64,000 nucleotides of DNA from Candidatus Parcubacteria bacterium (GTDB taxonomy: Bacteria; Patescibacteriota; Minisyncoccia; Phycocordibacterales; Zambryskibacteraceae): contig JAIFWP010000002.1 of NCBI GenBank assembly GCA_019661785.1, positions 161,869 to 225,868 on the forward strand. Reading direction: 5' to 3'. The notes beneath the pieces are model-generated. The model did not search any database. It saw nothing but the letters and a program-made list of their open reading frames with translations, and was not told where the DNA came from. Both the position numbers and the translations under genes were made by a program. Below are positions 5,029-47,141 of this stretch, piece by piece. Each line of letters begins with the position of its first letter. The stretch's first letter is position 1.

Positions 5029-5120
5029 GGAGACGTGTCAGAGTGGTCTATCGTACCTCTTTGCTAAAGAGGTGTGCCCTTTAAAAGGCACCGACGGTTC
5101 GAATCCGTCCGTCTCCGCCA
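5029..5120 (+). tRNA. tRNA-Ser(GCU), class II with a long variable arm; CCA encoded
   Basis: Acceptor GGAGACG/CGTCTCC, anticodon arm CCTCT-TTGCTAA-AGAGG, variable hairpin GTGCC...GGCAC and T-arm GACGG-TTCGAAT-CCGTC. Confidence 0.85.
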
Positions 5121-5204
5121 AGTAGCCGTTCTTAGTGTTGAGTTGTTATCAACAGCTTTCAGTTTTTTGTCAAATAGTCGTTTTTTTCATGATAGTCTGA
5201 ATGT

Positions 5205-7046
5205 ATGCAATGGAACGAGCGACTTACGGAAAATATTATAAATGGCTGGCTTAATAAGGTAGGAATCACAGAAAAAGATGGTTTTTCTGTTGAGCAACAA
5301 CTTAGTTCTAATCCGAGGATAGAAAAACTTCTTAAAAATGCTAGTAAGTCTGGAAACGGTGTTGGAAAACCTGAGTTCATAATAACTAAAAATACTGAAC
5401 AGAATTTTATTTTAATAATTGAATGTAAGGCTGATCCAAAATTTCATGAGTCCAAAAATCACGATAAATACAAAGACTACGCAGTTGATGGAGTTCTGCT
5501 ATACGCTTCTTATCTCGCCAAAGAATTTAATGTCATTGCCGTAGCTGTAAGTGGACAAAAAGAAGCAGAAATTAAAATAGACACTTTTCTACATCCTCGA
5601 GGATCTCTTAGGGCAGCTCCCCTAAAAGAAGGTGCTAGAGGGACAGCAATAAGAGAGATTATATCCTGGACTGATTATATACGTCATGCCACTTATGATG
5701 AAAATCTGACTCGAGTACGTCGTGAAGATTTAGCCAGATTTTCCCGTGATCTTCATAACTACATGCGTGACTATGCAAAAATAACTGAAGCTGATAAGCC
5801 CTTGCTTGTCAGTGGTATTCTTATCGCACTAATGGATGATGGATTTAAAGTTTCCTATTCTAAGTATGAGGAAGGATCATTGGCGAAGAGAACATATGAG
5901 ACAGTTAGAGATATTATTAACTCCGCCCAACTCGGAATAAATCAGGAAGAAAAAAAAGATGCAATCATAAATTCTTTTAGCTTTATTAAGCATCATCCTG
6001 AATTAAAAAAGATAGATCCTGAAACTAAAGAATCGCCGTTGGCACATATAATTAAAGAGATTGATCTTGAGGTCAGACCTTTTACTGAGGATCATTATGA
6101 TTTTGATGTGATTGGAAGCTTCTATGCTGAATTTGTTCGTTATACTGGCGGAGACAAAAAAGGTCTTGGTATTGTACTAACACCCAAACATCTAACAGAT
6201 TTGTTTGCAGATCTTGCTGGAGTTAATAAGAACTCAACTATTTTAGATACGTGTGCTGGCACGGGGGGGTTTCTAATATCAGCCATGCAAAAGATGACCA
6301 AAAATGTCAGTGATCTTGAAAGAAAGAGAATTTTGAGTGATTCTCTTATCGGTATTGAACAAGAACCAAAAATGTTTGCCTTGGCGGTTTCTAACATGAT
6401 CCTGAGAGGAGACGGAAAGACTAATCTTTATCAAGGATCATGTTTTGACGAGGATATTATTGGTCCCCTACGTGGTAAGGCAACGGTTGGATTTATTAAT
6501 CCCCCTTATTCTCAAAAAGGAAAAGCACTTCATGAATGGAATTTTATTGAAACTTTGTTGGATTCCTTGCAAGAAAATGCTACAGGAATTGTTGTGGTGC
6601 CGATGTCTTTATCAATTGCTCCTCATCCGACTCGACAAAAAATTTTGATTAATCATAGGCTGGAAGCTGTAATGAGTATGCCGGATGATTTATTTTATCC
6701 AGTAGGTGTCGTGTCGTGTATTATGGTTTTCACGGCGCACAAACCGCACGATAGTGAGCCAAGGCACGAGAGTTGGTTTGGTTATTGGAAAGACGATGGT
6801 TTTATAAAGGATCGCTTACAAGGCAGAATTCCCACGTCTAGATGGCCACTGATACGCGAAAAATGGCTTAACACTTTTTCTAAAAGAGAAGTGATCCCAG
6901 GTTTTAGCGTACGCAAAAAAGTAGATGGAAATGATGAATGGTGCGCAGAAGCTTATCTAGAAACAGACTACTCTTCAATAAAAGAAGAGGATTTTGAAGA
7001 TTTAATTAAGAGATACATTTTATTTAAAACCCTTAGTAATAGGTAA
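5205..7046 (+). CDS. Type IIB (BcgI-like) restriction-modification enzyme: N-terminal PD-(D/E)xK endonuclease fused to a gamma-class N6-adenine DNA methyltransferase
   Basis: N-terminus GKPEFIIT...ILIIECKAD (PE...ECK nuclease motif). The C-terminal half has AdoMet motif I (LDTCAGTGGFL) and motif IV (NPPY). 613 aa is close to BcgIA. AT-rich codon usage. Confidence 0.75.
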   Translation: MQWNERLTENIINGWLNKVGITEKDGFSVEQQLSSNPRIEKLLKNASKSGNGVGKPEFIITKNTEQNFILIIECKADPKFHESKNHDKYKDYAVDGVLLYASYLAKEFNVIAVAVSGQKEAEIKIDTFLHPRGSLRAAPLKEGARGTAIREIISWTDYIRHATYDENLTRVRREDLARFSRDLHNYMRDYAKITEADKPLLVSGILIALMDDGFKVSYSKYEEGSLAKRTYETVRDIINSAQLGINQEEKKDAIINSFSFIKHHPELKKIDPETKESPLAHIIKEIDLEVRPFTEDHYDFDVIGSFYAEFVRYTGGDKKGLGIVLTPKHLTDLFADLAGVNKNSTILDTCAGTGGFLISAMQKMTKNVSDLERKRILSDSLIGIEQEPKMFALAVSNMILRGDGKTNLYQGSCFDEDIIGPLRGKATVGFINPPYSQKGKALHEWNFIETLLDSLQENATGIVVVPMSLSIAPHPTRQKILINHRLEAVMSMPDDLFYPVGVVSCIMVFTAHKPHDSEPRHESWFGYWKDDGFIKDRLQGRIPTSRWPLIREKWLNTFSKREVIPGFSVRKKVDGNDEWCAEAYLETDYSSIKEEDFEDLIKRYILFKTLSNR

Positions 7047-7047
7047 T

Positions 7048-8007
7048 ATGGAATTAACACCTCTAAACACAATTTTTGACATTGAGTATGGAAATAAATT
7101 CGATCTGAATAAAATGATTATTAAAGATAAAAGCAAGATAGCTTTTGTGGGGCGTACAGAAAAAAATAATGGTGTTACGGCGTATGTTGAAGAGGTGTCT
7201 GGGATAAGTCCATATGATCCAGGTTTCATAACTGTCGCTCTCGGCGGTGCAATTCTTGAGTCTAATCTCCAGCCATTCCCTTTTTATACGGCGCAGAATG
7301 TTGCAGTTTTAAAACCTAAAAATACAATGAGTGACGAAGAGAAACTTTTCTATGCTTTTGCTATTGAAGCTAACAAATTCAGATATGGCGCCTTTGGTAG
7401 AGAGGCTAATCGTTCCTTGAGAACGCTTCTTGTTCCGAAGTCTATTCCCAAGATGTTTATGAAGAAGAGTAATTTTGAACCATCTAATGAATCTATATTA
7501 TTCCCAAGGGAGGTGACATTTCCACCTACTTTATGGAAATCATTCAAGTACAAAGATATATTTGATATCCAAACTGGTATTGGTCCATTAGTAAAATCAA
7601 GAACAATCGAGAATGGAGCAGTCCCTTTTGTGTCTACAACATCTGAGAGTAATGGTTTCTCTTACTATTATGCTGGTCCTGCAAAACATGCCGCAAATCT
7701 CATAACCGTGAGTAATGATGGATCTGTAGGAGAAGCTTTCTATCAAGATAAACCATTTTCTGCCAGCTATAAGGTTAATATTTTAGCTCCAAAATTTGAA
7801 CTTAATTTGTATAGGGCATTATTTTTGAACGCGATCATTAGAAAAGAAAAATATCGTTATTCATACGGACGCAAGTGGGGACTAGATAGAATGAAGGAAT
7901 CAATAATGAAATTGCCAGCATGTCCAAATGGGAGTCCTGATTGGAAATATATGGAAGATTATATAAAGTCTCTGCCGTATACCAAGACTTTGCTCAGCTA
8001 CGTTTAA
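7048..8007 (+). CDS. Restriction-modification specificity (S) subunit with two TRD-like halves (BcgIB-like)
   Basis: Starts 2 nt after the RM gene. Internal duplication (FDIEYGNKF... / FDIQTGIGP...) and HsdS-like conserved linkers (LLVPKSIP..., IMKLPA). Confidence 0.65.
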   Translation: MELTPLNTIFDIEYGNKFDLNKMIIKDKSKIAFVGRTEKNNGVTAYVEEVSGISPYDPGFITVALGGAILESNLQPFPFYTAQNVAVLKPKNTMSDEEKLFYAFAIEANKFRYGAFGREANRSLRTLLVPKSIPKMFMKKSNFEPSNESILFPREVTFPPTLWKSFKYKDIFDIQTGIGPLVKSRTIENGAVPFVSTTSESNGFSYYYAGPAKHAANLITVSNDGSVGEAFYQDKPFSASYKVNILAPKFELNLYRALFLNAIIRKEKYRYSYGRKWGLDRMKESIMKLPACPNGSPDWKYMEDYIKSLPYTKTLLSYV

Positions 8008-8109
8008 ATTAAAGATTTTAATCTGTAATATTAAATTAAGTACATCAAATTTTATAAATTTCGAACGCCTTGAAAGATTAAAGGTTTTGTTGTAGTTTTG
8101 GTTGAATAA

Positions 8110-8976
8110 ATGACCTCACAACTTTTTCCAGAAGCAGCTCTCCCACAGTATCTTTTGGATATTTATTTCCAAGGGCCATCTTTTAACGGAATGATGGAGA
8201 TTGATTCCCTCGCCAAAGAGGTTCAAGGCTTAGAGACTGTGTTGAGAATTGCGTTGCATTCCCTGATAAAAAATAAAAGGCTTAATCTGAAAAGTGGGGA
8301 CTTGGAAATTTATGTTGAGGCATTTGAGAAGGGATCATTTCGAAAAAGAATAAAAGTTTTTAATAGGACAACAAAAGAATATGTGCCTCTAGTTAGTTTG
8401 GCAACATTAGTTGTCTTGATATTCCAAACGATCCCTCAATATAAAACAGAGGAGATAAAAACTTTGTCTCCAGAGCTAATTGCTTCAGTGAGAGATCAGG
8501 TAGTGTTAGAACTATTGCAGGATAAGAAGTTTTTGGGTGCAGCGGCTGATATTGTACAGCCTATATCGCTTGGAGGTGATATGTGCACTTTGTCTTCAGC
8601 CGTTGACAATAAAGCCGTGATTGATTCCGAAACTAGTAAGAAGTTTATTAATTTAACTGATTCTGCTGAGAGTTCAGTTGATGATGGGGAATATTATGAA
8701 GTATTGCAGGGAAGAATAAACAGGGTGGATCTGGATGCTTCAAGAAGGCATATAGGATTTAAGGTCAATAGTGAGGGAGCGACAATTGATGCAACATTTC
8801 AAAATAAGCCATCTCCCGAAGAAATGAAGTCTTTGCTTGGTGAGTGGGTGGAAATCAAAGGTAATGTTTCGTATATAGGCGGCCAAAGAAGTCATGTGGA
8901 TATCTCTGAATTTAATGTAATCAAACAGAGGCAATTTGATATGCATTCTGATCAATCAGATAATCCCAAAAAATAA
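8110..8976 (+). CDS. Hypothetical protein (288 aa) in the AT-rich island
   Basis: Long clean ORF with AT-rich composition like the RM genes. No recognizable motifs. Confidence 0.55.
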   Translation: MTSQLFPEAALPQYLLDIYFQGPSFNGMMEIDSLAKEVQGLETVLRIALHSLIKNKRLNLKSGDLEIYVEAFEKGSFRKRIKVFNRTTKEYVPLVSLATLVVLIFQTIPQYKTEEIKTLSPELIASVRDQVVLELLQDKKFLGAAADIVQPISLGGDMCTLSSAVDNKAVIDSETSKKFINLTDSAESSVDDGEYYEVLQGRINRVDLDASRRHIGFKVNSEGATIDATFQNKPSPEEMKSLLGEWVEIKGNVSYIGGQRSHVDISEFNVIKQRQFDMHSDQSDNPKK

Positions 8977-9007
8977 ATTAATATTACCGAGGTACACTTA
9001 AGCCCTA

Positions 9008-9388
9008 ATGTTTTTGAAATTCAGGCTTAGGCGGGGGAGAAAGACTATACGGCGGAGGCCGGCGGGGAAGTATTTGAAGTATAAGGAGGAGGCGAGGGCG
9101 CTGGTGCGGGCGAGGCTCGAGTACTTTAATGCCGAGTATGGCTTCAAGTGGAATCGTATTGCCATTAAGGACCACAAGTCGCGATGGGGTAGCTGCTCCA
9201 AGAAGGGGAATCTGAACTTTAACTACCGCATAGCCCTCATAGCGCCTCACCTTGCCGACTATATAGTAGTGCACGAGCTCTGCCACTTGGGAGAGCTTAA
9301 CCATTTAGTCGAGCGCTCTATGCCAGACTGGCGTAAGAGGCGAGACGAACTGATGAAGATAGGAGCCAACACTGCAAGTTTGATTTGA
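9008..9388 (+). CDS. DUF45/YgjP-family zinc metallohydrolase, C-terminal half only (likely 5'-truncated)
   Basis: SRWGSCSKKGNLNFNYRIALIAPHLADYIVVHELCHLGELNH (HExxH) matches the DUF45 C-terminus. About 100 N-terminal residues of the family are absent. The gene sits 31 nt after the island's last gene. Confidence 0.5.
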   Translation: MFLKFRLRRGRKTIRRRPAGKYLKYKEEARALVRARLEYFNAEYGFKWNRIAIKDHKSRWGSCSKKGNLNFNYRIALIAPHLADYIVVHELCHLGELNHLVERSMPDWRKRRDELMKIGANTASLI

Positions 9389-9583: not shown

Positions 9584-9838
9584 ATGAATATATGGCTCAA
9601 GCGTGAGTGGTATGTGGCCATGCATGGACAGCCGAGGAGCTTCCGCACTAAGAAGTGGATTGTGATACTCGTAGTCGCCGCAGTCCTCTATAGACTTCGT
9701 GGATGGGGTTTGGTCTTGTGGGTCTTTGCCCCGCTTGGACTCATTGGCATTTGTGCGCACTTCTACCTCAGGCATAAGACAGGTGGCTGGAGGAGGGAGT
9801 GGAAGTTTGTGAAAGCAATCCCTACCCCGTACGACTAA
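9584..9838 (+). CDS. Small two-TM hypothetical protein
   Basis: ORF with hydrophobic helices. The competing antisense ORF looks like junk. Confidence 0.3.
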   Translation: MNIWLKREWYVAMHGQPRSFRTKKWIVILVVAAVLYRLRGWGLVLWVFAPLGLIGICAHFYLRHKTGGWRREWKFVKAIPTPYD

Positions 9839-9855
9839 TAAGCTACAACACCCCC

Positions 9856-10302
9856 ATGTCAGAATATAAATCACAGTACAAAAACATCTTTGTGAATTTG
9901 CCCGTGAAGGATATTGGGAAGACCAGAGACTTCTGGACTAAGCTCGGCTTTAACTTCAACCCGCAGTTTAGCGATGAGAGGAACCTGTGCCTCGTCATCC
10001 ATGACAACATCTTTGCCATGCTCCTTAGCGAGGACTTCTTTAAAGGTTTTACTAAGGTAGAGATTGCCGATCCGAGGAAGGCGAACGAGGCCATAGTAGC
10101 TCTCTCGGCCGAGAGCAGGGAAGACGCAGATGGGCTCTTCAATAAAGCCGTAGCCGCGGGTGGAGTAGAGACGCGCCCAGCTGAGGACATGGGGTGGATG
10201 TACGGCAGAGCCTTCCAGGACCTCGACGGACATCAATGGGAGGTTGTGTGGATGGACATGGCCAAGGCGCCAGCGCATCCGGGCGAGGCTACCAATAATT
10301 AA
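9856..10302 (+). CDS. VOC (glyoxalase/bleomycin-resistance fold) family protein
   Basis: Internal ATG (MSEYKSQYKNIFVNLPVKD...) chosen over the track start at 9799. Beta-alpha-beta-beta-beta VOC pattern. Confidence 0.65.
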   Translation: MSEYKSQYKNIFVNLPVKDIGKTRDFWTKLGFNFNPQFSDERNLCLVIHDNIFAMLLSEDFFKGFTKVEIADPRKANEAIVALSAESREDADGLFNKAVAAGGVETRPAEDMGWMYGRAFQDLDGHQWEVVWMDMAKAPAHPGEATNN

Positions 10303-10310
10303 ACAAATAT

Positions 10311-10709
10311 ATGAATAGAATAGTCCACTTCGAGATACAGGCCGATGAGACAGAGCGAGCGGCCAAGTTCTACCGAGACGTCTTCAGCTGGGAGATAGAG
10401 AAGTATCCTATGCCTGACATGGAGTACTGGGGCGTCATGACTGCGCCGAAGGACTCTAAAGAGCCAGGCATCAACGGCGGGCTCTTGAAGCGTCCATGCC
10501 CAGCGCCAGCGCTCGGCCAAGGATTGAACGCCATGGTCTGCACCATACAGGTCGACGACTTCGACGCATATGCTAAGAAGATACTCGCCGCCGGAGGCCA
10601 GGTGGCTATGCCCAAGTTCGCTCTCCCAGGCATGGCTTGGCAAGGCTACTTTATCGACACTGAGGGCAACACCTTTGGCCTGCATCAGGCAGATGCTGGC
10701 GCTAAGTAA
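10311..10709 (+). CDS. VOC family protein
   Basis: VHFEIQADETERAAKFYRDVFSWE... and C-terminal GNTFGL. Confidence 0.7.
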   Translation: MNRIVHFEIQADETERAAKFYRDVFSWEIEKYPMPDMEYWGVMTAPKDSKEPGINGGLLKRPCPAPALGQGLNAMVCTIQVDDFDAYAKKILAAGGQVAMPKFALPGMAWQGYFIDTEGNTFGLHQADAGAK

Positions 10710-10738
10710 AAGCAGAATAATTCTAAACTAATAAACTT

Positions 10739-11170
10739 ATGGCAAAACCAAATCCAGTTGTGCACTTCGAGATGGGCTATAACGATAAGGAGAGAGCGAA
10801 GAAGTTCTACAATACTGTCTTCGGCTGGCAGATGCAGGAGATGGGGCCCGACATGGGCGGCTACGTCGTCGCTCAGACGGCAGTGACGGATGAGAAGGGG
10901 ATGGTACAGACCCCAGGCAATATTAATGGGGGCTTCTACCAGAAGACAGCAGACCCAGGCTCGCATGCGCCATCGGTAGTCATAGCAGTGGACGACATCA
11001 AGCAGGCCATGAAGGATGTAGAGGCAGCAGGAGGCAAGATTGCTGGCGCTATGGGCGCTGACGGCAAGCCATCCATGGAGCCGATGATGATACCTGGCGT
11101 TGGACTCTGGATATCGTTCATCGATACAGAGGGCAACAGGACGAGTTTGCTACAGCCAGTACAGAAGTAG
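10739..11170 (+). CDS. VOC family protein
   Basis: VHFEMGYNDKERAKKFYNTVFGWQ... and C-terminal GNRTSL; paralog of the previous gene. Confidence 0.7.
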   Translation: MAKPNPVVHFEMGYNDKERAKKFYNTVFGWQMQEMGPDMGGYVVAQTAVTDEKGMVQTPGNINGGFYQKTADPGSHAPSVVIAVDDIKQAMKDVEAAGGKIAGAMGADGKPSMEPMMIPGVGLWISFIDTEGNRTSLLQPVQK

Positions 11171-12038: not shown

Positions 12039-12713
12039 TCAGTGGGCTATGGCTAGACAAAGGATTTTGCACGCGTCCGCAGAGCGGAGCGCGCGCCTAG
12101 CCTCGGCGAAAGTAGCTCCGGTGGTAGTGACATCATCGAGAAGGATTATATTCTTGCCCCTCACAAATTCGGGGCCTGCGACCGTCATAGAATTCTCAAG
12201 ATTCCGGAGTCTCAACTTTTTATTGACGGTCTTGGTCTGGCTCTCGGTATGGCTGTGCTTGGACAAGATGTTTGGCGAGTATTCAAATAAGTTTTCCACA
12301 TCAAGTTTTTTGATTTCCTCACACAGCACTTCGGTCTGGTTCCAGCCTCGCTCGCTCCGACGTTTGTCCGACATGGGCATGGGTACTAAGAGAGGCTCTA
12401 TGAAGTTGTCGAAGAGCGCTCGCTCGGCTAGCTCGTGGCACAGCACGTCGTATACGATAGTTGCGAGGGTCGAGGCTATCTTCACATTCTTCCTGTATTT
12501 GAGCTCCCAGACTAGGTCTCGCACACGAGGGTCAGTGTAGGAGAAGATGGCAATAGTGTCGGGCCCCACGTCGCCAAGGCTATGCGGGGCCGAAAGCCTC
12601 GTGACGAGTTCTCCAGGGGATAGGGTTTCCAATTCGAGAACTCCCAAGGCCTTCGGGAACAAAAAGTCCACAAAACCCTCAAATGTAGCCTTTAGACTCA
12701 TGTATAATGACAT
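12039..12713 (-). CDS. comF: ComF-family competence protein (phosphoribosyltransferase domain)
   Basis: C-terminal PRTase motif IILLDDVTTTGATFAEA. Confidence 0.8.
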   Translation of the reverse strand: MSLYMSLKATFEGFVDFLFPKALGVLELETLSPGELVTRLSAPHSLGDVGPDTIAIFSYTDPRVRDLVWELKYRKNVKIASTLATIVYDVLCHELAERALFDNFIEPLLVPMPMSDKRRSERGWNQTEVLCEEIKKLDVENLFEYSPNILSKHSHTESQTKTVNKKLRLRNLENSMTVAGPEFVRGKNIILLDDVTTTGATFAEARRALRSADACKILCLAIAH

Positions 12714-12716
12714 TAT

Positions 12717-13829
12717 ATGTCACTCTTTGGCTCCACTTTCGGCAACCTTTTTGGCAAGAAGGAGGTTCCGAGCGTACTCGGTGTGGACATCGGCTCCTCG
12801 GCTATAAAGATAGTCCAACTAAGGAAGAAGAACGGTCAAGCCGTGCTCGAGACCTACGGCGAGCTCGCTCTTGGTCCGTATGGCGCGTCCGCCATCGGCC
12901 AGTCGGTGCAATTGCCGACGGAGAAGATTATTGAAGCTCTCTCAGACCTTATGAAGGAGAAGGAGGTCAACGTCACAACGCGCCTCGCCGGACTCTCCAT
13001 ACCCTTCAGCTCCTCGCTCATGTCGGTCATCGAGCTCCCGGCAGTCTCCGACAAGCAGCTCGCGACCATGGTCCCTCTCGAGGCCCGCAAGTATATACCC
13101 GTACCGATAAACGAAGTCATGCTCGACTGGTCAGTTATCCCTAAGACCGACAGCAGAGACGATGACGCAGTCGCTGAAGGGATGCAAAAGAAGGTTGAGG
13201 TCCTCGTCGTCGCCATCCACAACGACACCATATCCAAGTACCAGCAGATTGTGGAGAAGACGGGTCTCCAGGCAGGCTTCTTCGAGATAGAGATATTCTC
13301 CACTATGCGCTCCGTAGTCGAGGAGAGTCTGACGCCAACTATGATAATGGACTTTGGCGCGGCGTCGACCAAGCTATACATCATTGAGCGCGGGGTTATC
13401 AAGTCATCGCACACTGTTAACCGCGGCTCGCAAGACATCACTGCGGCCATAGCGGGCTCACTCGGCATACCAGTAGAGCGAGCAGAGATGATGAAGCGCG
13501 AGGTCGGCGCAAGCGGCTCGGACCAAACATTGCGTCAGATTATTACTCTCGTCCTCGACTACATCTTTGCCGAGGCTAATCGCTCTCTCTTAGGATTTGA
13601 GAAGAAGTACAATAGGACAGTGGGCAAAGTAATACTCGTCGGCGGAGGAGCCTCGCTCAAGGGTCTAGCAGAGCTCGCCAAGAACGCCTTCAAGACCGAG
13701 GCCGTGCAAGGCAACCCCTTCGGCAAGCTATCGACCCCGGCATTTATAGAGAAGGTCCTCCGCGAGACTGGTCCTGAGTTCGCCGTCTGCATCGGCGCCG
13801 CTTTAAGGAAGCTCCAAGACGAAGGATAA
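12717..13829 (+). CDS. pilM: Type IV pilus assembly protein PilM (actin-like ATPase)
   Basis: N-terminus FGKKEVPSVLGVDIGSSAIKIVQL is typical of PilM; 370 aa. Confidence 0.85.
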   Translation: MSLFGSTFGNLFGKKEVPSVLGVDIGSSAIKIVQLRKKNGQAVLETYGELALGPYGASAIGQSVQLPTEKIIEALSDLMKEKEVNVTTRLAGLSIPFSSSLMSVIELPAVSDKQLATMVPLEARKYIPVPINEVMLDWSVIPKTDSRDDDAVAEGMQKKVEVLVVAIHNDTISKYQQIVEKTGLQAGFFEIEIFSTMRSVVEESLTPTMIMDFGAASTKLYIIERGVIKSSHTVNRGSQDITAAIAGSLGIPVERAEMMKREVGASGSDQTLRQIITLVLDYIFAEANRSLLGFEKKYNRTVGKVILVGGGASLKGLAELAKNAFKTEAVQGNPFGKLSTPAFIEKVLRETGPEFAVCIGAALRKLQDEG

Positions 13830-13834
13830 CTATT

Positions 13835-14743
13835 ATGCACTGGTTCTTTATTGCCCTGGCGGCACCGGCTTTGTGGAGTGTCTCAAACCATATTGATAAG
13901 TTTGTCATAAGCAACTATTTCTCAGGCAAGGGAGTTGGATCTCTTGTGCTTTTTACAGCTCTTGGCGGAAGTTTGGTGGCTATCCTTATAGCGATATTTA
14001 GTAATGCGTCCTTCAACCTCGGAAGCGCACATATTTTAGTCATTGCTCTAAGCGGGGCGATTCTCGTTGCTGCATTTATTCCGTATCTCCATGCGCTTGA
14101 GATTGATGAAGCCTCCTATGTTACAGCGCTCTTCCAGATGATTCCTGTGTTCGGCTATGTTTTAGCGTTTCTATTTTTAGGGGAGAATCTCAGTGTCGCT
14201 CAGACAATTGGTTCAGCCTTAATCATTGGGGCATCAATCTTCATGTCGCTCGACTTGTCTGAGCACATACGCATCAGGATGAAGCCGCTTCTTCTCATGA
14301 TGCTCTCGTCCTTGATGATATCCCTTAACGCTTTGTTGTTTAAAGTTATTGCTCTGGATGAGAGTTTCTGGGGCACGGCATTCTGGGAGTATGTAGGTGC
14401 CGGAGTGTTCGGCCTGTTGCTCTTCGTGCTGTACCCGCTCTACAGGACTCAATTTCTCGCAACTCTCACGCGAAGTCGCTTTACGGTTTTAGGGTTGAAC
14501 ACATTTTCTGAATGTTTGAACATCGGCGCGAAGTTGTTGGCCAACTTTGCGAGTCTCCTTGCTCCTCTTGCCCTCGTGTGGGTCGTCAACGGTTTCCAGC
14601 CGCTTATCGTATTTCTGTACGGAGTTATTCTCACATTATTCATACCGAAATGGGGGACTGAAAATCTCAGCGCTAAAGTAATTTTGCAAAAATTGACCGG
14701 GATGGCGGTCATCTTTGTCGGAGTGGCCTTGCTCTTCGCCTAG
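13835..14743 (+). CDS. DMT/EamA-like 10-TM transporter
   Basis: Ten predicted TM helices in two EamA-like halves. Confidence 0.6.
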   Translation: MHWFFIALAAPALWSVSNHIDKFVISNYFSGKGVGSLVLFTALGGSLVAILIAIFSNASFNLGSAHILVIALSGAILVAAFIPYLHALEIDEASYVTALFQMIPVFGYVLAFLFLGENLSVAQTIGSALIIGASIFMSLDLSEHIRIRMKPLLLMMLSSLMISLNALLFKVIALDESFWGTAFWEYVGAGVFGLLLFVLYPLYRTQFLATLTRSRFTVLGLNTFSECLNIGAKLLANFASLLAPLALVWVVNGFQPLIVFLYGVILTLFIPKWGTENLSAKVILQKLTGMAVIFVGVALLFA

Positions 14744-14858
14744 AGTGTAAATACTTTTGTGCCCGCAAGCTCCAAGACGAAGGTTGACAGGTGACTAACT
14801 AAGTGCTATTACATAAGCGGATTGTTTCATCTGGCAACTTCTCACTGGAGAGTGCGTA

Positions 14859-15389
14859 ATGCGTATCCGAAGCTTTTTGGGTTCAGCCGCGCTGGTTCTT
14901 CTCGCGGCAGCGGCCGAAGGGCAGGCATTGCCTGCGGGTGTCATACTTGGCGCTGCGCAGCGTAAGGCGCAGAAGATGGCTGAGGCCGCGCCTGTGCACA
15001 GGGATACCGTGGCTGTGAAGGGCGGTCTCATGCTCGTCTGCGATGTGCAGCAGGCTGTCATAGCCGTGACCGGGTATCAGTATGCGGACGGTTCCAAGAT
15101 TCTGGCGAGTGCGTCGGCGGGCATCACCTTCCTTCTCGTTGTGGACTCGGCCGGCAAGAGGCTCACTCTGCTCTCGCCCAAACCTATCCCCGTATGGAAG
15201 AATTCCGTGTACGCGGTGACTTATCATCCGCGAAGTGCAGTCGATCCGCTCGAGCTCATCGAGATATCGTCGCTCGTGTTTGATTTGAAAAGCCAAGGCA
15301 CCATCTTCGTCAATGGTATTTTGATGGGTGCCACGAGTATCGACGCAAAGGCCGATGCCATTATCCAGAAGGGAAGGTCTTGCCGTTAA
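14859..15389 (+). CDS. Secreted hypothetical protein (signal peptide); high-GC cassette gene
   Basis: GGAGAG RBS, signal peptide MRIRSFLGSAALVLLAAAA and visibly higher GC than its neighbors. Confidence 0.55.
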   Translation: MRIRSFLGSAALVLLAAAAEGQALPAGVILGAAQRKAQKMAEAAPVHRDTVAVKGGLMLVCDVQQAVIAVTGYQYADGSKILASASAGITFLLVVDSAGKRLTLLSPKPIPVWKNSVYAVTYHPRSAVDPLELIEISSLVFDLKSQGTIFVNGILMGATSIDAKADAIIQKGRSCR

Positions 15390-15399
15390 GTTCTCTGTA

Positions 15400-15431
15400 C
15401 CCGCCCCGATGAAAATCGGGGCGGTTCTTCA
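15400..15431 (+). terminator. Intrinsic terminator CCCGCCCCGAT-GAAAA-TCGGGGCGG plus a T-tract (copy 1)
   Basis: A GC-rich hairpin of at least 10 bp followed by TTCTTC. An identical copy sits at 16136. Confidence 0.7.
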
Positions 15432-15520
15432 TAAATTTGATTTCTTTTATCCAAAAGCGCATAGTCAGAGCGCGGGCGAAAGATAGTACCCCGTGTGTAC
15501 CTTTAGTATAGGAGCTGACC

Positions 15521-16132
15521 ATGTCTACAGGCATGCTCGGCAGGGTGTCGCTCTCTGACCTTCAGGGACCGATGAATGATTTGATGGAAAAGTTGGCGGG
15601 GCCAAATGGTCATCGGTGGCTGAGGGAACTGAACAGATTCCTCAGGCGGCAGGGGACCTGGACCTCGCTCTTGCCTCTCGTTGTCGAGTCCGATGGCAAC
15701 TCGGGAGAGGACTACATCCGCTATCTTGCGCGTAACTGGGAGCTTAACAATCACGCCAAGCAGGCGATTCTCTCACCTGAGTTTGTCGTCACCAGAGACG
15801 TGAAGTATGAGATTCAGCTTCTGATGCGCTCTGACTTCGACGTCTTGCCCACTAGCAAGAGTGTCTATCAGGTAGCGGCGGGGCGTGGCTACAAGCCTGC
15901 GCCGCTTGAAGTTGGCCCCCTGCTCAGGAGCATGATGAGGCGGAACGATTTCAAGAAGCTCGGCATCCAATGCATCGTCGTCATGCAGCCCGAGGAGATA
16001 CTGACGGCTCGGTTCTATATCGGTATGGACGATACCCTGAGCGTGGTCGCGCCGGGAGCTGAAAAGAGATGGTCCAACGATACTGCCTGGGCGTTCGTCG
16101 CTCCGGAAGAAGATGTGTACGTGCATGCGTAA
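15521..16132 (+). CDS. Hypothetical cytoplasmic protein (203 aa); high-GC cassette gene
   Basis: TAGGAG RBS and high GC; no family recognized. Confidence 0.55.
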   Translation: MSTGMLGRVSLSDLQGPMNDLMEKLAGPNGHRWLRELNRFLRRQGTWTSLLPLVVESDGNSGEDYIRYLARNWELNNHAKQAILSPEFVVTRDVKYEIQLLMRSDFDVLPTSKSVYQVAAGRGYKPAPLEVGPLLRSMMRRNDFKKLGIQCIVVMQPEEILTARFYIGMDDTLSVVAPGAEKRWSNDTAWAFVAPEEDVYVHA

Positions 16133-16135
16133 GCC

Positions 16136-16167
16136 CCCGCCCCGATGAAAATCGGGGCGGTTCTTTG
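16136..16167 (+). terminator. Intrinsic terminator, identical 30-nt copy of the 15400 element
   Basis: CCCGCCCCGATGAAAATCGGGGCGGTTCTT repeated exactly. Confidence 0.7.
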
Positions 16168-16222
16168 TATCTGTGTATATATAGATAGAAGTATTGGGGA
16201 ATCTCTTCTATAATTAAGCTAG

Positions 16223-16951
16223 ATGCAACCCCAGTTTCAATCATCATTCATCCCTAAAGGTCCGGTAGCTACTACTGGCACGGCCACTCGTGTCTCGCAA
16301 GGCGCAGACAGGAGCCTCCTTGGCACTCTAGCTGTCCTTGTTTTCGTTATATCGGTAGTCCTCTCCGTTGGCGTCTTCGGCTATGAGAAGTATCTTGACT
16401 CGCGCATCAACGCCATGAACGGCGACCTCGCCGCCGCCCGCGCGACGCTTAAGCCAGAAGTCATCACGGACATCTCCCGCCTCGACCAGCGACTCGTAGC
16501 AACGCAGGTGCTCCTCAATAAGCACATCGTCCTCTCGCCACTCTTCGACTACCTTGAGAACGCCACCTTGAAGGGTGTGCGCTTCACCGAGTTCCAATAT
16601 CTCACTACAGAACAGGGCCTCACTCTCAACATGCGCGGAGAGGCTAAGGGATACGCGGCAGTCTCCTTGCAGGCACAGGTCTTCAACAAGAGCCCTTACA
16701 TGAAGCAGCCTATCTTCTCTGACCTCGACCTCGACGACAAGGGCAATGTGACCTTCTCCTTCAAGGTGAAGCTCGACCCAAGCATCGTCTCGTACAAGAA
16801 GCTCGTTAACGATGTGCCTGCTGTCACACAAGTGCTCGTACCTGTCTCTCAGCCAGTGACAACTGTTGCGACTACGACTACCGATAAGACAACACAGAAG
16901 CAGACAGCCGCTTCGACCACAGCTTCAACAACGAAGAAGACAAGCCAATAG
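16223..16951 (+). CDS. pilN: PilN-like type IV pilus assembly protein (TM plus coiled coil plus Thr-rich tail)
   Basis: Single TM helix followed by a periplasmic domain; lies between pilM and pilO. Confidence 0.6.
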   Translation: MQPQFQSSFIPKGPVATTGTATRVSQGADRSLLGTLAVLVFVISVVLSVGVFGYEKYLDSRINAMNGDLAAARATLKPEVITDISRLDQRLVATQVLLNKHIVLSPLFDYLENATLKGVRFTEFQYLTTEQGLTLNMRGEAKGYAAVSLQAQVFNKSPYMKQPIFSDLDLDDKGNVTFSFKVKLDPSIVSYKKLVNDVPAVTQVLVPVSQPVTTVATTTTDKTTQKQTAASTTASTTKKTSQ

Positions 16952-17812: not shown

Positions 17813-19543
17813 ATGTCAATCCTCGACTTACTCAAAGATAAGAAGGTCATAAAGCCTGAGGATATTGCTGCCATAGAGGCTGAGGCGCAGGGGAGCGGCC
17901 TCTCTCTTGAGCAAGTGCTCGTCACTCGCGGCATAGCGCCGGAGACAATACTTGAGGCCAAGGGCCAAGAGCTCGACATACCAACGAGGAGCTTGAAGGA
18001 TTTGAACGTGCCGTCAAAAGTCCTCGGCTACATACCAGAGGAGTCGGCCGAGCACTATAAGGTTCTACCATTAGGGGTCAAAGACGGCGTACTTGAAGTG
18101 GGCATCGTCGACCCAGACGACATCGAGGCTCGCGATGCGCTCAACTTCATCTCGGCGAAGATAGGTATGCCGTACAAGCTCTTCCTCGTCTCGGCGGCTG
18201 ACTTTGGCAATGTCGCTACTCTATATAAGGGCATCACCGGAGAGGTGAACGAGGCTCTCTCCGAACTCGACACCGAACTCGCTGAGAAGCAGGAATCAAG
18301 AAAGAGCAAGCAGAAGGACAAGATAGACGAGGTCGAGCTTGGTCTGACTGAGACGAAGATTGTTGAGGACGCTCCGGTAACGAAGATTGTCGCCACTATC
18401 CTCTCATATGCTACCGAGGGTAACGCGTCAGATATTCATATCGAACCTCAACACGACAACATCCGCGTGCGCTTCCGAGTTGACGGTGTGCTTAATACTT
18501 CGCTTGTGCTGCCTATCAAGGTCCACTCGGCTGTGGTAGCGCGCATCAAGATACTCTCGAACATGCGCCTCGACGAGAAGAGGAAGCCTCAGGATGGCCG
18601 CTTCAGCGCGAAGATGGAGAGCCGCCGCATAGACTTCCGCGTATCGACCTTCCCAACTTACTATGGCGAGAAGGTGGTGATGCGTATCCTCGACCAAGAG
18701 AAGGGAGTTAGGAAGCTCTCTGAACTAGGCCTCTCGAAGGAGAACCTGGCTCTCATCCTCGACGCCATCAAGCGCCCTTACGGGCTCATCCTTATATCCG
18801 GCCCGACAGGCTCCGGCAAGTCGACCACTCTCTACTCCATGCTTAACGAGGTCGACAAAGACCACAGTAACGTGCTCTCTCTCGAGGATCCGGTGGAGTA
18901 CAACATGGCCGGCGTGAGCCAGTCGCAAGTCCAGCCGGAAATCGACTACACCTTTGCCACAGGACTTCGTACGACCTTGCGCCAAGACCCAGACATCATC
19001 ATGGTCGGTGAGATACGAGACAAGGAGACGGCTCAGCTCGCCATACAAGCGGCGCTTACCGGACACTTGGTGCTCTCGACCATACACACGAACAACGCTC
19101 TCGGCGTTATCCCGCGCCTCATTGACATGGGCGTCGACCCTTACCTCATAGCTCCGACTCTCATACTCGCCATGGCTCAGCGCTTGGTGAAGACTCTCTG
19201 CGAGGGCGGCGGCAAGGCCATCCCGGTCGAGGACTCTATCAAGCTCATGCTCGACAAGCAGTTTGCCGACTTGCCGCCGGAGTTCAAGAAGTCGATACCC
19301 TTCGGCAAGGAGGTCTACGAGCCGTCACCAACTGCTACCTGTCTCTCCGGTGTCGCTGGACGCACTGCAGTTATGGAAGTGCTCGCCATGGACAAGGATA
19401 TTGAGCAAGTGATACTCAAGAATCCGACCGAGCCTGAGCTCATGAAGATAGCTCGCGCCAAGGGCATGCTCACTATGAAGGAGGACGCTATCTTGAAGGC
19501 CTTCCAGAAGGTCATTCCATTCGCTGAGGTAAATACGCTATAA
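17813..19543 (+). CDS. pilB: Type IV pilus assembly ATPase PilB (GspE family)
   Basis: N-terminal GSPII-E domain; Walker A GPTGSGKSTTLY; Asp and His boxes. Confidence 0.9.
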   Translation: MSILDLLKDKKVIKPEDIAAIEAEAQGSGLSLEQVLVTRGIAPETILEAKGQELDIPTRSLKDLNVPSKVLGYIPEESAEHYKVLPLGVKDGVLEVGIVDPDDIEARDALNFISAKIGMPYKLFLVSAADFGNVATLYKGITGEVNEALSELDTELAEKQESRKSKQKDKIDEVELGLTETKIVEDAPVTKIVATILSYATEGNASDIHIEPQHDNIRVRFRVDGVLNTSLVLPIKVHSAVVARIKILSNMRLDEKRKPQDGRFSAKMESRRIDFRVSTFPTYYGEKVVMRILDQEKGVRKLSELGLSKENLALILDAIKRPYGLILISGPTGSGKSTTLYSMLNEVDKDHSNVLSLEDPVEYNMAGVSQSQVQPEIDYTFATGLRTTLRQDPDIIMVGEIRDKETAQLAIQAALTGHLVLSTIHTNNALGVIPRLIDMGVDPYLIAPTLILAMAQRLVKTLCEGGGKAIPVEDSIKLMLDKQFADLPPEFKKSIPFGKEVYEPSPTATCLSGVAGRTAVMEVLAMDKDIEQVILKNPTEPELMKIARAKGMLTMKEDAILKAFQKVIPFAEVNTL

Positions 19544-35116: not shown

Positions 35117-35119
35117 ATT

Positions 35120-35277
35120 GCCAAGATAGCTCAGCCCCGACGAGCGAAGCTGTCGGGGAGCCGACCTTGCGTCGGCTTTGGTAGAGTTAGATAGTATTGC
35201 CAAGATAGCTCAGCCCCGACGAGCGAAGCTGTCGGGGAGCCGACCTTGCGTCGGCTTTGGTAGAGTTAGATAGTATT
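35120..35277 (+). repeat. Two tandem 79-bp direct repeats, each starting with the first 15 nt of tRNA-Thr(GGU) and carrying two GC-rich hairpins
   Basis: Unit: GCCAAGATAGCTCAG + CCCCGACGAGCGAAGCTGTCGGGGAGCCGACCTTGCGTCGGCT + TTGGTAGAG + TTAGATAGTATT. Copies at about 35120 and 35199; the intact tRNA begins at 35278. Confidence 0.8.
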
Positions 35278-35350
35278 GCCAAGATAGCTCAGTTGGTAGA
35301 GCACATCCATGGTAAGGATGAGGTCCCCGGTTCGATCCCGGGTCTTGGCT
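35278..35350 (+). tRNA. tRNA-Thr(GGU); CCA encoded at 35351-35353
   Basis: Acceptor GCCAAGA/TCTTGGC, anticodon loop ATGGTAA, T-arm CCCGG-TTCGATC-CCGGG. Confidence 0.85.
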
Positions 35351-35372
35351 CCAGGTCTGCTATACTCAGGTT

Positions 35373-46665: not shown

Positions 46666-47001
46666 TCACAAATTATTGTTAATGAGATTCAGTTTCTTTT
46701 CACGTCGCCAGCCCTTCAATTCCAACTCTCTTTGCTTCGCTTCTTTCAGAGTTTGGAATATCTCTTTGTATCTTAACTCAACTGGTCTGCGGATCTTCGT
46801 ATAATATGCTCCCCACTTGGAGTCATTGTGTTGATGTAACCTCCTTTCAAGATTATTTGTACACCCTACATATAAGGACTTATCTGCGCATTCGAGAATA
46901 TAGACGAAGAATGACACATTCAAATAATACCACTTCGCTCTACTGAGCTCAGTGCCTTCGTCGACCTTGTGAAATACGGTCGAAGACCCTGAGGAGCACA
47001 A
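46666..47001 (-). CDS. GIY-YIG nuclease family protein
   Basis: FFVYILECADKSLYVGCTNNLERRLHQHN...; the start is uncertain. Confidence 0.7.
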   Translation of the reverse strand: MCSSGSSTVFHKVDEGTELSRAKWYYLNVSFFVYILECADKSLYVGCTNNLERRLHQHNDSKWGAYYTKIRRPVELRYKEIFQTLKEAKQRELELKGWRREKKLNLINNNL

Positions 47002-47012
47002 GCGACGAAGGG

Positions 47013-47083
47013 CTGCCGATCAGGGACTCGAACCCCAATTAACCGCTCCAGAGGCGGTCGTCCTACCATTAGACGAATCGGCA
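47013..47083 (-). tRNA. tRNA-Gln(CUG)
   Basis: Reverse-strand U1-A72 acceptor TGCCGAT/ATCGGCA, anticodon arm ACCGC-CTCTGGA-GCGGT, T-loop TTCGAGT. Confidence 0.7.
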
Positions 47084-47141
47084 ATACAGGCCAAGAATAG
47101 CTCAAAAGCGAGCTATTTTCAATCTTGATATACTTACTGCT

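Follow-up and report, generated by a model that had tools for sequence, protein, structure and literature searches.

A perfect 17-nt direct repeat marks an inserted transporter gene at the pilM-pilN boundary of a Parcubacteria pilus cluster

How did a transporter gene come to lie between pilM and pilN, two genes of a type IV pilus cluster, and why do the last codons of pilM stand on both sides of it? The question is raised by a 64-kb stretch of the genome of a Candidatus Parcubacteria bacterium (contig JAIFWP010000002.1, positions 161,869 to 225,868), called the window here and numbered from its first base. A 17-nt word, AAGCTCCAAGACGAAGG, occurs in it exactly twice, at 13809-13825 and 14767-14783, both on the plus strand, and the two copies bracket a gene of the EamA family. 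An earlier note, made from the sequence alone, had read the pair as a target-site duplication or the footprint of an insertion of about 950 bp into the 3' end of pilM. The pair is the scar of a real, well-delimited insertion at the pilM 3' end with duplication of the target. The insertion is not of the transposon type, and it is part of a three-gene addition at a spot that is variable across the lineage.

The features at the first junction are as follows.

12717..13829, plus strand: pilM, 370 amino acids, intact (Pfam PilM_2, PF11104, E=7e-38)
13809..13825, plus strand: copy 1 of the 17-mer, coding for K L Q D E G in the functional pilM
13826..14766, plus strand: insert 1 between the two 17-mers, 941 bp, made up of a leader of 9 nt, the EamA gene and a trailer of 23 nt
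13835..14743, plus strand: EamA/DMT transporter gene, 302 amino acids (Pfam PF00892, E=1e-8, above the cut-off)
14767..14803, plus strand: relic of the pre-insertion pilM end, consisting of copy 2 of the 17-mer (14767-14783), T+TGA (14784-14787) and CAG GTGACTAACTAAG

The repeat is far too long to be expected by chance. The expectation is 0.01 matches, two copies were seen in 0 of 100 shuffles, and no further copy exists in the window even when two mismatches are allowed. Scanning the whole window for exact direct repeats of at least 17 nt spaced by at most 5 kb returned only three, and 50 Markov simulations returned none. The three are a tandem array associated with a tRNA-Thr, the 17-mer itself, and a 30-mer lying 600 nt beyond it. 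A 14-mer pair over a stop codon (50069/50257) was considered as a second such case and rejected: its second copy lies within a minus-strand open reading frame (ORF), and about 1.2 such pairs are expected by chance.

Both copies end in frame with a stop, as the earlier note had claimed. In copy 1 these are the final PilM residues, AALRKLQDEG*, and the stop is TAA at 13827-13829; the third base of the last Gly codon of pilM and the stop (A TAA) are provided by the inserted DNA. The resulting C-terminus, ALRKLQDEG*, is the same as in the closest relative (locus L001). Copy 2 follows the end of EamA after 23 nt; its in-frame reading is ARKLQDEG*, the stop being TGA at 14785-14787. Extended through the stop, the copies agree at 20 of 22 nt. 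Their flanks read AGG in copy 1 and CGC in copy 2 for Arg, GGA and GGT for Gly, TAA and TGA for the stop, followed by a shared C. Removing one 17-mer together with insert 1 leaves ...GAC GAA GGT TGA and an identical PilM.

Evidence for an insertion comes from related genomes. Searches with PilM in one-genome-per-species and metagenome collections yielded loci from the Candidate Phyla Radiation (CPR; Parcubacteria or Zambryskibacteria-like) with PilM proteins 63-74% identical. A phosphoribosyltransferase gene on the minus strand, pilM, pilN, pilO, an ORF of 96 amino acids and pilB follow one another in this order in all 11 distinct contigs that carry both pilM and pilN (L021 duplicates L009 on one contig; the L023 spacer and the partly N-masked L005 spacer were not read). 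The gap between pilM and pilN is 51-445 nt, and neither EamA nor the two further genes described below, ORF176 and ORF203, lies in it in any of the 11. Since pilM in the relatives is followed directly by pilN without EamA, the EamA gene of the window is an insertion. The contiguity of pilM, pilN and pilO that had been supposed for other genomes is thus borne out, and no relative carries the transporter in the same place without repeats.

The bases beyond copy 2 bear on the side at which the DNA entered. The CAG GTGACTAACTAAG behind copy 2 is similar to the first bases of the L001 pilM-pilN spacer, TGTGTATAACTAAG. A position-constrained test of the 30 nt past the stop of copy 2 (CAGGTGACTAACTAAG...) against the 30 nt past the L001 stop (TGTGTATAACTAAG...) gives p=0.003-0.005; an unconstrained local alignment with the L001 spacer is not significant (p=0.11). 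Copy 2 is thus a pilM end whose right-hand context looks native, as expected for DNA inserted on its left.

The proposed target-site duplication stands in part. The 17-mer is a duplicated target with a native-looking stop and spacer to the right of copy 2, but in the transposon sense the term does not fit: there is no transposase, there are no terminal inverted repeats, the element occurs once, and 17 bp is an atypical length.

What was inserted is a single gene. The EamA protein has an EamA domain and the form of a multi-pass membrane protein of about 300 amino acids, with 60% hydrophobic residues, and is a putative transporter; its full-length homologs are named EamA by NCBI, in agreement with the original assignment. 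Insert 1 has no promoter or terminator. The last codons of pilM form a Shine-Dalgarno-like GAAGGA 9 nt ahead of the EamA ATG.

Homologs of EamA outside the source genome are 60-65% identical, uniformly 302 amino acids long, and all from CPR bacteria. In five relatives the gene stands in five different neighbourhoods, so it relocates as a single unit. Repeats flanking these other copies reach at most 9 nt, which is chance level. In the window EamA is single-copy, while the 17-mer and the 30-mer have two copies each; neither a second EamA copy nor its usual neighbours (NUDIX, MacB) are present there.

The composition of the gene might seem to point to a foreign source. Its G+C content (GC) is 0.47, its GC at third codon positions (GC3) is 0.55 (z -0.6) against 0.67-0.73 for the pil genes, and its codon typicality has a z of -1.2. 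The orthologs are equally GC-poor, 0.47-0.48 in loci of 0.50-0.53. Since they share the low GC, the composition is a family property and no evidence of recent foreign origin. Composition was accordingly ruled out as proof of foreign origin, and the codon-usage comparison suggested earlier, like GC, gives no sign of it. The cargo genes as a group are window-like in composition. The inserted DNA resembles nothing in phage and plasmid records, and its proteins have no match in PHROGs or NCBIfam.

The transporter is only the first of the additions. The extra DNA that separates the pilM stop from the native spacer before pilN amounts to 2,342 bases and carries three genes, EamA, ORF176 and ORF203. 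The features downstream of insert 1 are as follows.

14859..15389, plus strand: ORF176, predicted secreted protein with a hydrophobic signal-like N-terminus and a coding-like GC1/2/3 pattern
15400..15429, plus strand: hairpin repeat copy 1, perfect 30 nt, terminator-like, after ORF176
15430..16135, plus strand: insert 2 (706 bp), ORF203 preceded by a leader of 91 nt that contains TAGTAT and GGAG
15521..16132, plus strand: ORF203, of an unannotated family of proteins of about 200 amino acids
16136..16165, plus strand: hairpin repeat copy 2, perfect 30 nt, 3 nt past the ORF203 stop
16172..16222, plus strand: native pilM-pilN spacer, orthologous to the entire L001 spacer from its pilM stop
16223..16951, plus strand: pilN (Pfam), followed by pilO, the 96-amino-acid ORF and pilB
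17813..19543: PilB (Pfam)

The earlier note had placed pilN right after copy 2, displaced by the EamA insertion. The insertion is real, but it is one of three nested additions, and pilN lies 1.4 kb farther on, starting at 16223 with ORF176 and ORF203 in between.

The second perfect bracket is the 30-nt repeat CCCGCCCCGATGAAAATCGGGGCGGTTCTT, which encloses ORF203. It is a 24-nt perfect palindrome with a perfect, GC-rich stem of 10 bp, a GAAA loop and a T-rich tail. Two copies are found in the window and none in the relatives; the remaining strong hairpins of the window are all unique. The hairpin was rejected as a REP-like dispersed element, having only these two copies. Both the 17-nt and the 30-nt repeat lie within the extra DNA, are sharp-edged, and bracket one gene each. 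Terminal inverted repeats are absent from both inserts, the best end-to-end inverted alignments scoring 11 and 10, which is background.

A third bracket may once have existed. ORF176 and the DNA upstream of it are flanked by two segments like a spacer start, 14791-14803 and 16172-16188, both resembling that of L001, and these may be an older, decayed bracket. ORF176 itself has no detectable homolog. No paralogy was found for ORF176, ORF203 or the small cargo ORFs of the relatives.

The same junction varies among related genomes. Six loci have empty junctions of 51-180 nt (L001, L003, L004, L008, L010 and L011). L006, L012/L018 and L017 each carry a different small ORF with a terminator hairpin at the junction, and these are mutually unrelated. 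In L020 (1025-4604) the cluster is broken exactly after pilM and no pilN is found there; instead follow a high-GC ORF of 205 amino acids, an IS200-like (Y1_Tnp) gene on the opposite strand, and the housekeeping genes adk, map and ndk. Kinship of the 205-residue ORF with ORF203 is not supported (hhalign probability 3%). Repeats around the insertions of the relatives are weak, 10 nt at 90% in L017 and 16 nt at 81% in L012. Flanking genes are thus conserved and cargo differs among relatives, as in hot spots of horizontal gene transfer, and judged by gene order the pilM/pilN boundary of the pilus cluster is a recurrent variable spot in the lineage.

Why this boundary might accept new genes is suggested by the pilN side. 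The stretch 16166-16222 of the window aligns with the whole 51-nt spacer of L001 (p=0.0015), the native spacer starting with TGTGTATA (16172-16179). A TATAAT at 16209-16214 precedes the pilN ATG by 8 nt, and one is found in all relatives, 8-16 nt before the pilN start. Since the TATAAT is kept, pilN appears to have its own promoter, and the pilM/pilN junction would be a boundary between transcription units. The genes on both sides form a type IV pilus cluster: a PilM_2 domain protein has pilN, pilO, pilB, pilT, pilC, pilin and prepilin-peptidase genes as neighbours, and beyond PilB lie a response regulator, a PilT-like ATPase, PilC, pilins and a prepilin peptidase (Pfam).

A TATAAT stands 8 nt before the start of pilM as well as that of pilN (12703-12719 and 16209-16225), with no Shine-Dalgarno sequence, which suggests that both transcripts are leaderless or nearly so. 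The pilM start and the start of the divergent phosphoribosyltransferase gene are 3 nt apart. The pilM-pilN spacers also keep a DnaA-box-like motif, TTATNCACA, in either orientation (window 16172-16180, L001 7120-7128, L003, L004, L006, L008-L012 and L017). Its variants are AGTTATCCACG in L012, GTTATAAACAC in L003, L004 and L011, TGTGTATAA in L001 and TGTGTATAT in the window.

The model favoured here for the origin of the brackets, with a probability of roughly 0.6, is that the duplications were generated on insertion by host processes, in a series of illegitimate events. A promoterless 941-bp EamA segment would have been joined into the last pilM codons, with 17 bp of the target duplicated. 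The upstream 17-mer would remain part of pilM, the A TAA of the insert completing the Gly codon and the stop and leaving PilM unchanged, while the downstream 17-mer (...GGT TGA and the old spacer start) would be a dead relic. ORF176 would be an older addition between two diverged copies of the spacer start, and ORF203 would have been added with a perfect 30-bp duplication of the ORF176 terminator.

In each case foreign or relocated DNA may have been joined by host repair, without a recombinase, at offset nicks or breaks that were then filled in. Offset breaks followed by fill-in would give target duplications of variable length. We infer both this break-and-fill-in mechanism and the order of events. 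Such insertions would be tolerated because the pilM/pilN junction is a transcription-unit boundary and pilN has its own TATAAT; the cargo would ride on read-through from pilM and end at the hairpin, and pilN would not be cut off. On this model pilM, EamA and ORF176 should share a transcript that ends at 15424-15429, and pilN transcription should begin separately, just past the TATAAT at 16209-16214. The model predicts an empty site reading AGG AAG CTC CAA GAC GAA GGT TGA CAG GTGACTAACTAAG; a joint of ...GACGAAGG straight to TTGACAGGTGAC would correspond to the empty site or to an excision by recombination between the 17-mers.

Gene gain without a mobile element is a known kind of event, and the scar is a tidy yet fairly ordinary footprint of it; the perfect target duplications are unusually long here. 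Retro-insertion of an mRNA is not supported as a route. The left end of insert 1, 9 nt ahead of the ATG, does lie close to the point where the orthologs would begin transcription. However, the 91 nt upstream of the gene in insert 2 include a -10-like box, and there is neither an A-tail nor a reverse transcriptase.

Several points weigh against serial insertion by host processes. The closest relative, L001, has only 74% PilM identity, and no true empty site was seen. The differences flanking the 17-mer are purely synonymous or stop-preserving (an Arg codon and a stop in frame would arise together by chance with a probability of about 0.005), and two diverged pilM alleles would account for them equally well or better. 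Around ORF176 the segments like a spacer start are not significantly alike (p=0.87), so that the third bracket rests on their resemblance to L001. No enzyme and no direct evidence for offset breaks were found in the 64 kb to which the genome evidence is confined, and we are not aware of a described host pathway in bacteria by which foreign DNA comes to be flanked by duplications of 17-30 bp.

The alternative that survives best, though it is rather unlikely, is homology-assisted import from a close strain. In this model the donor already had EamA next to its pilM 3' end, copy 2 is the pilM end of the recipient, and the 17 nt are a stretch conserved between two alleles, with no duplication at insertion. 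Natural transformation guided by a single homologous anchor (homology-facilitated illegitimate recombination) is one conceivable route, and a sloppy double crossover is another. Recipients would then read CGC AAG ... GGT TGA. It accounts for the synonymous flanks (AGG/CGC, GGA/GGT, TAA/TGA), and CGC is the Arg codon of most relatives at that position.

Hot spots or islets between core genes are filled by transformation and recombination without mobile-element genes, and the present locus is like them in its conserved flanks, pilM and pilN, its lineage-specific cargo in relatives and its lack of mobility genes. It is unlike them in its two perfect brackets, since a double crossover leaves no target duplications. 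Pilus and competence machinery is present in CPR bacteria (PMC6744442), and the cluster in the window is an instance. However, import needs a donor with a native pilM-EamA junction, an adjacency found in no relative or metagenome contig: scans with PilM and EamA of genome, metagenome and viral collections gave neither that adjacency nor a PilM more than 74% identical. L001 differs from the 17-mer at 3 of 17 positions, and synonymous sites within it vary, so 17 identical bases beside 4 mismatches in 8 flanking bases would be odd. The sharp 30-nt bracket is also left unexplained.

More doubtful is a dedicated route in CPR bacteria or Parcubacteria that installs single promoterless genes and duplicates 15-30 bp of target without an element-encoded enzyme. 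It may consist of a trans-acting nuclease and ligase or of integration coupled to DNA uptake, and the pilM-pilN boundary may then be a cassette platform, used in three events here and independently in four relatives. Integron cassette arrays offer a comparison. In them, too, single genes that lack promoters follow one another in the same direction behind one promoter, and two of the genes here are followed by identical hairpin repeats. The perfect 24-nt terminator-like palindrome is unlike an attC site, an imperfect palindrome of 55-140 nt with R''/R' boxes (GTTRRRY), however, IntI and attI are missing, and EamA has no hairpin. As an integron attC the hairpin was rejected on its perfect 10-bp stem, GAAA loop and T tail, together with the lack of an integrase.

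An enzyme supplied in trans is quite improbable. It would be a tyrosine or serine recombinase with the 17-mer as its att core, or an IS1634/IS1549-like transposase mobilising a non-autonomous element. As with integrative elements at the 3' ends of tRNA or protein genes, the direct repeat does rebuild the end of the gene that was hit: it overlaps the 3' end and stop, the product is unchanged, and one copy is a relic. Copy 1 with the first bases of the insert spells KLQDEG*, and copy 2 spells the same with its own stop, as for an att core. Such elements differ in that no integrase is found in the 64 kb, that the insert is below 1 kb with one cargo gene, and that there is no sign of the element having carried the 17-mer beforehand. 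An element of 941 bp with a single gene would need to bring along a copy of a pilM-specific 17-mer, and other EamA copies, as noted, lack flanking repeats above chance level.

Transposases fare no better. Classical transposons make duplications of a fixed, family-specific length of 2-14 bp and occur in multiple copies; here the brackets differ in length (17 and 30 bp) and EamA is single-copy. No transposase, integrase or reverse transcriptase was found with Pfam among the 66 ORFs of the window, the three inserted genes included. An IS200-like gene does lie just downstream of pilM in L020, but IS200-type elements make no target duplication. To our knowledge, IS1549 and IS1634 are the only makers of long variable duplications. 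Like the present inserts they are flanked on both sides by long direct target duplications that vary between events, in their case from 8 to 514 bp, but they are elements of 1.5-2 kb with a large DDE transposase and terminal repeats (PMC2266710). The inserts here have single-copy one-gene cargo and share neither inverted repeats nor conserved ends.

An assembly artefact, in which two strain variants were stitched at a shared word to give a false duplication, is very improbable: the genome is metagenome-assembled and strain mixtures are common, but all ORFs are intact, the junctions are gene-precise, the cargo matches the window in composition, the contig is long (236 kb), and a 17-nt identity is shorter than usual assembler k-mers. 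A chance repeat, or a regulatory or ribosome-binding motif unrelated to insertion, to which the Shine-Dalgarno-like GAAGG before the EamA start might point, is effectively refuted by the expected count, the repeat simulations and the gene order of the relatives, which shows the intervening DNA to be an insertion, and copy 2 is followed by no start codon with a usable ORF.

Other parts of the window hold observations of their own. Upstream of the pilus cluster lie three tandem glyoxalase/bleomycin-resistance-like genes (9799-11170). At 35117-35353 two perfect 79-nt tandem units stand directly upstream of tRNA-Thr(GGT). Each unit consists of the first 15 nt of the tRNA (GCCAAGATAGCTCAG), a 43-nt double-hairpin insert and the D-arm continuation (TTGGTAGAG), and is thus a partial copy of the tRNA 5' part with an interrupted D-loop.

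A tRNA-Ser (5029-5120) is followed by three genes whose GC3 is 0.28-0.33, where the window averages 0.61, encoding the type I restriction-modification proteins HsdM and HsdS and a 288-amino-acid protein of no known kind; a truncated YgjP-like ORF comes next. The stretch 5029-9388 is clearly a foreign island adjoining a tRNA. A GIY-YIG nuclease-domain protein of 111 amino acids adjoins tRNA-Gln (46666-47084), in a stretch of lower GC3 at 43-47 kb.

The genomes of CPR bacteria are tiny, few mobile elements have been recognised in them, and their gain of genes is poorly documented. At the pilM-pilN locus a succession of gene gains can still be read, since the junctions are intact and the pre-insertion sequence can be predicted exactly. 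The target gene is unharmed, and the cargo would join a transcript that already existed. Should single genes bracketed in this way prove numerous in CPR bacteria, they would point to a specific integration route; otherwise the locus would serve as a clean example of illegitimate insertion.

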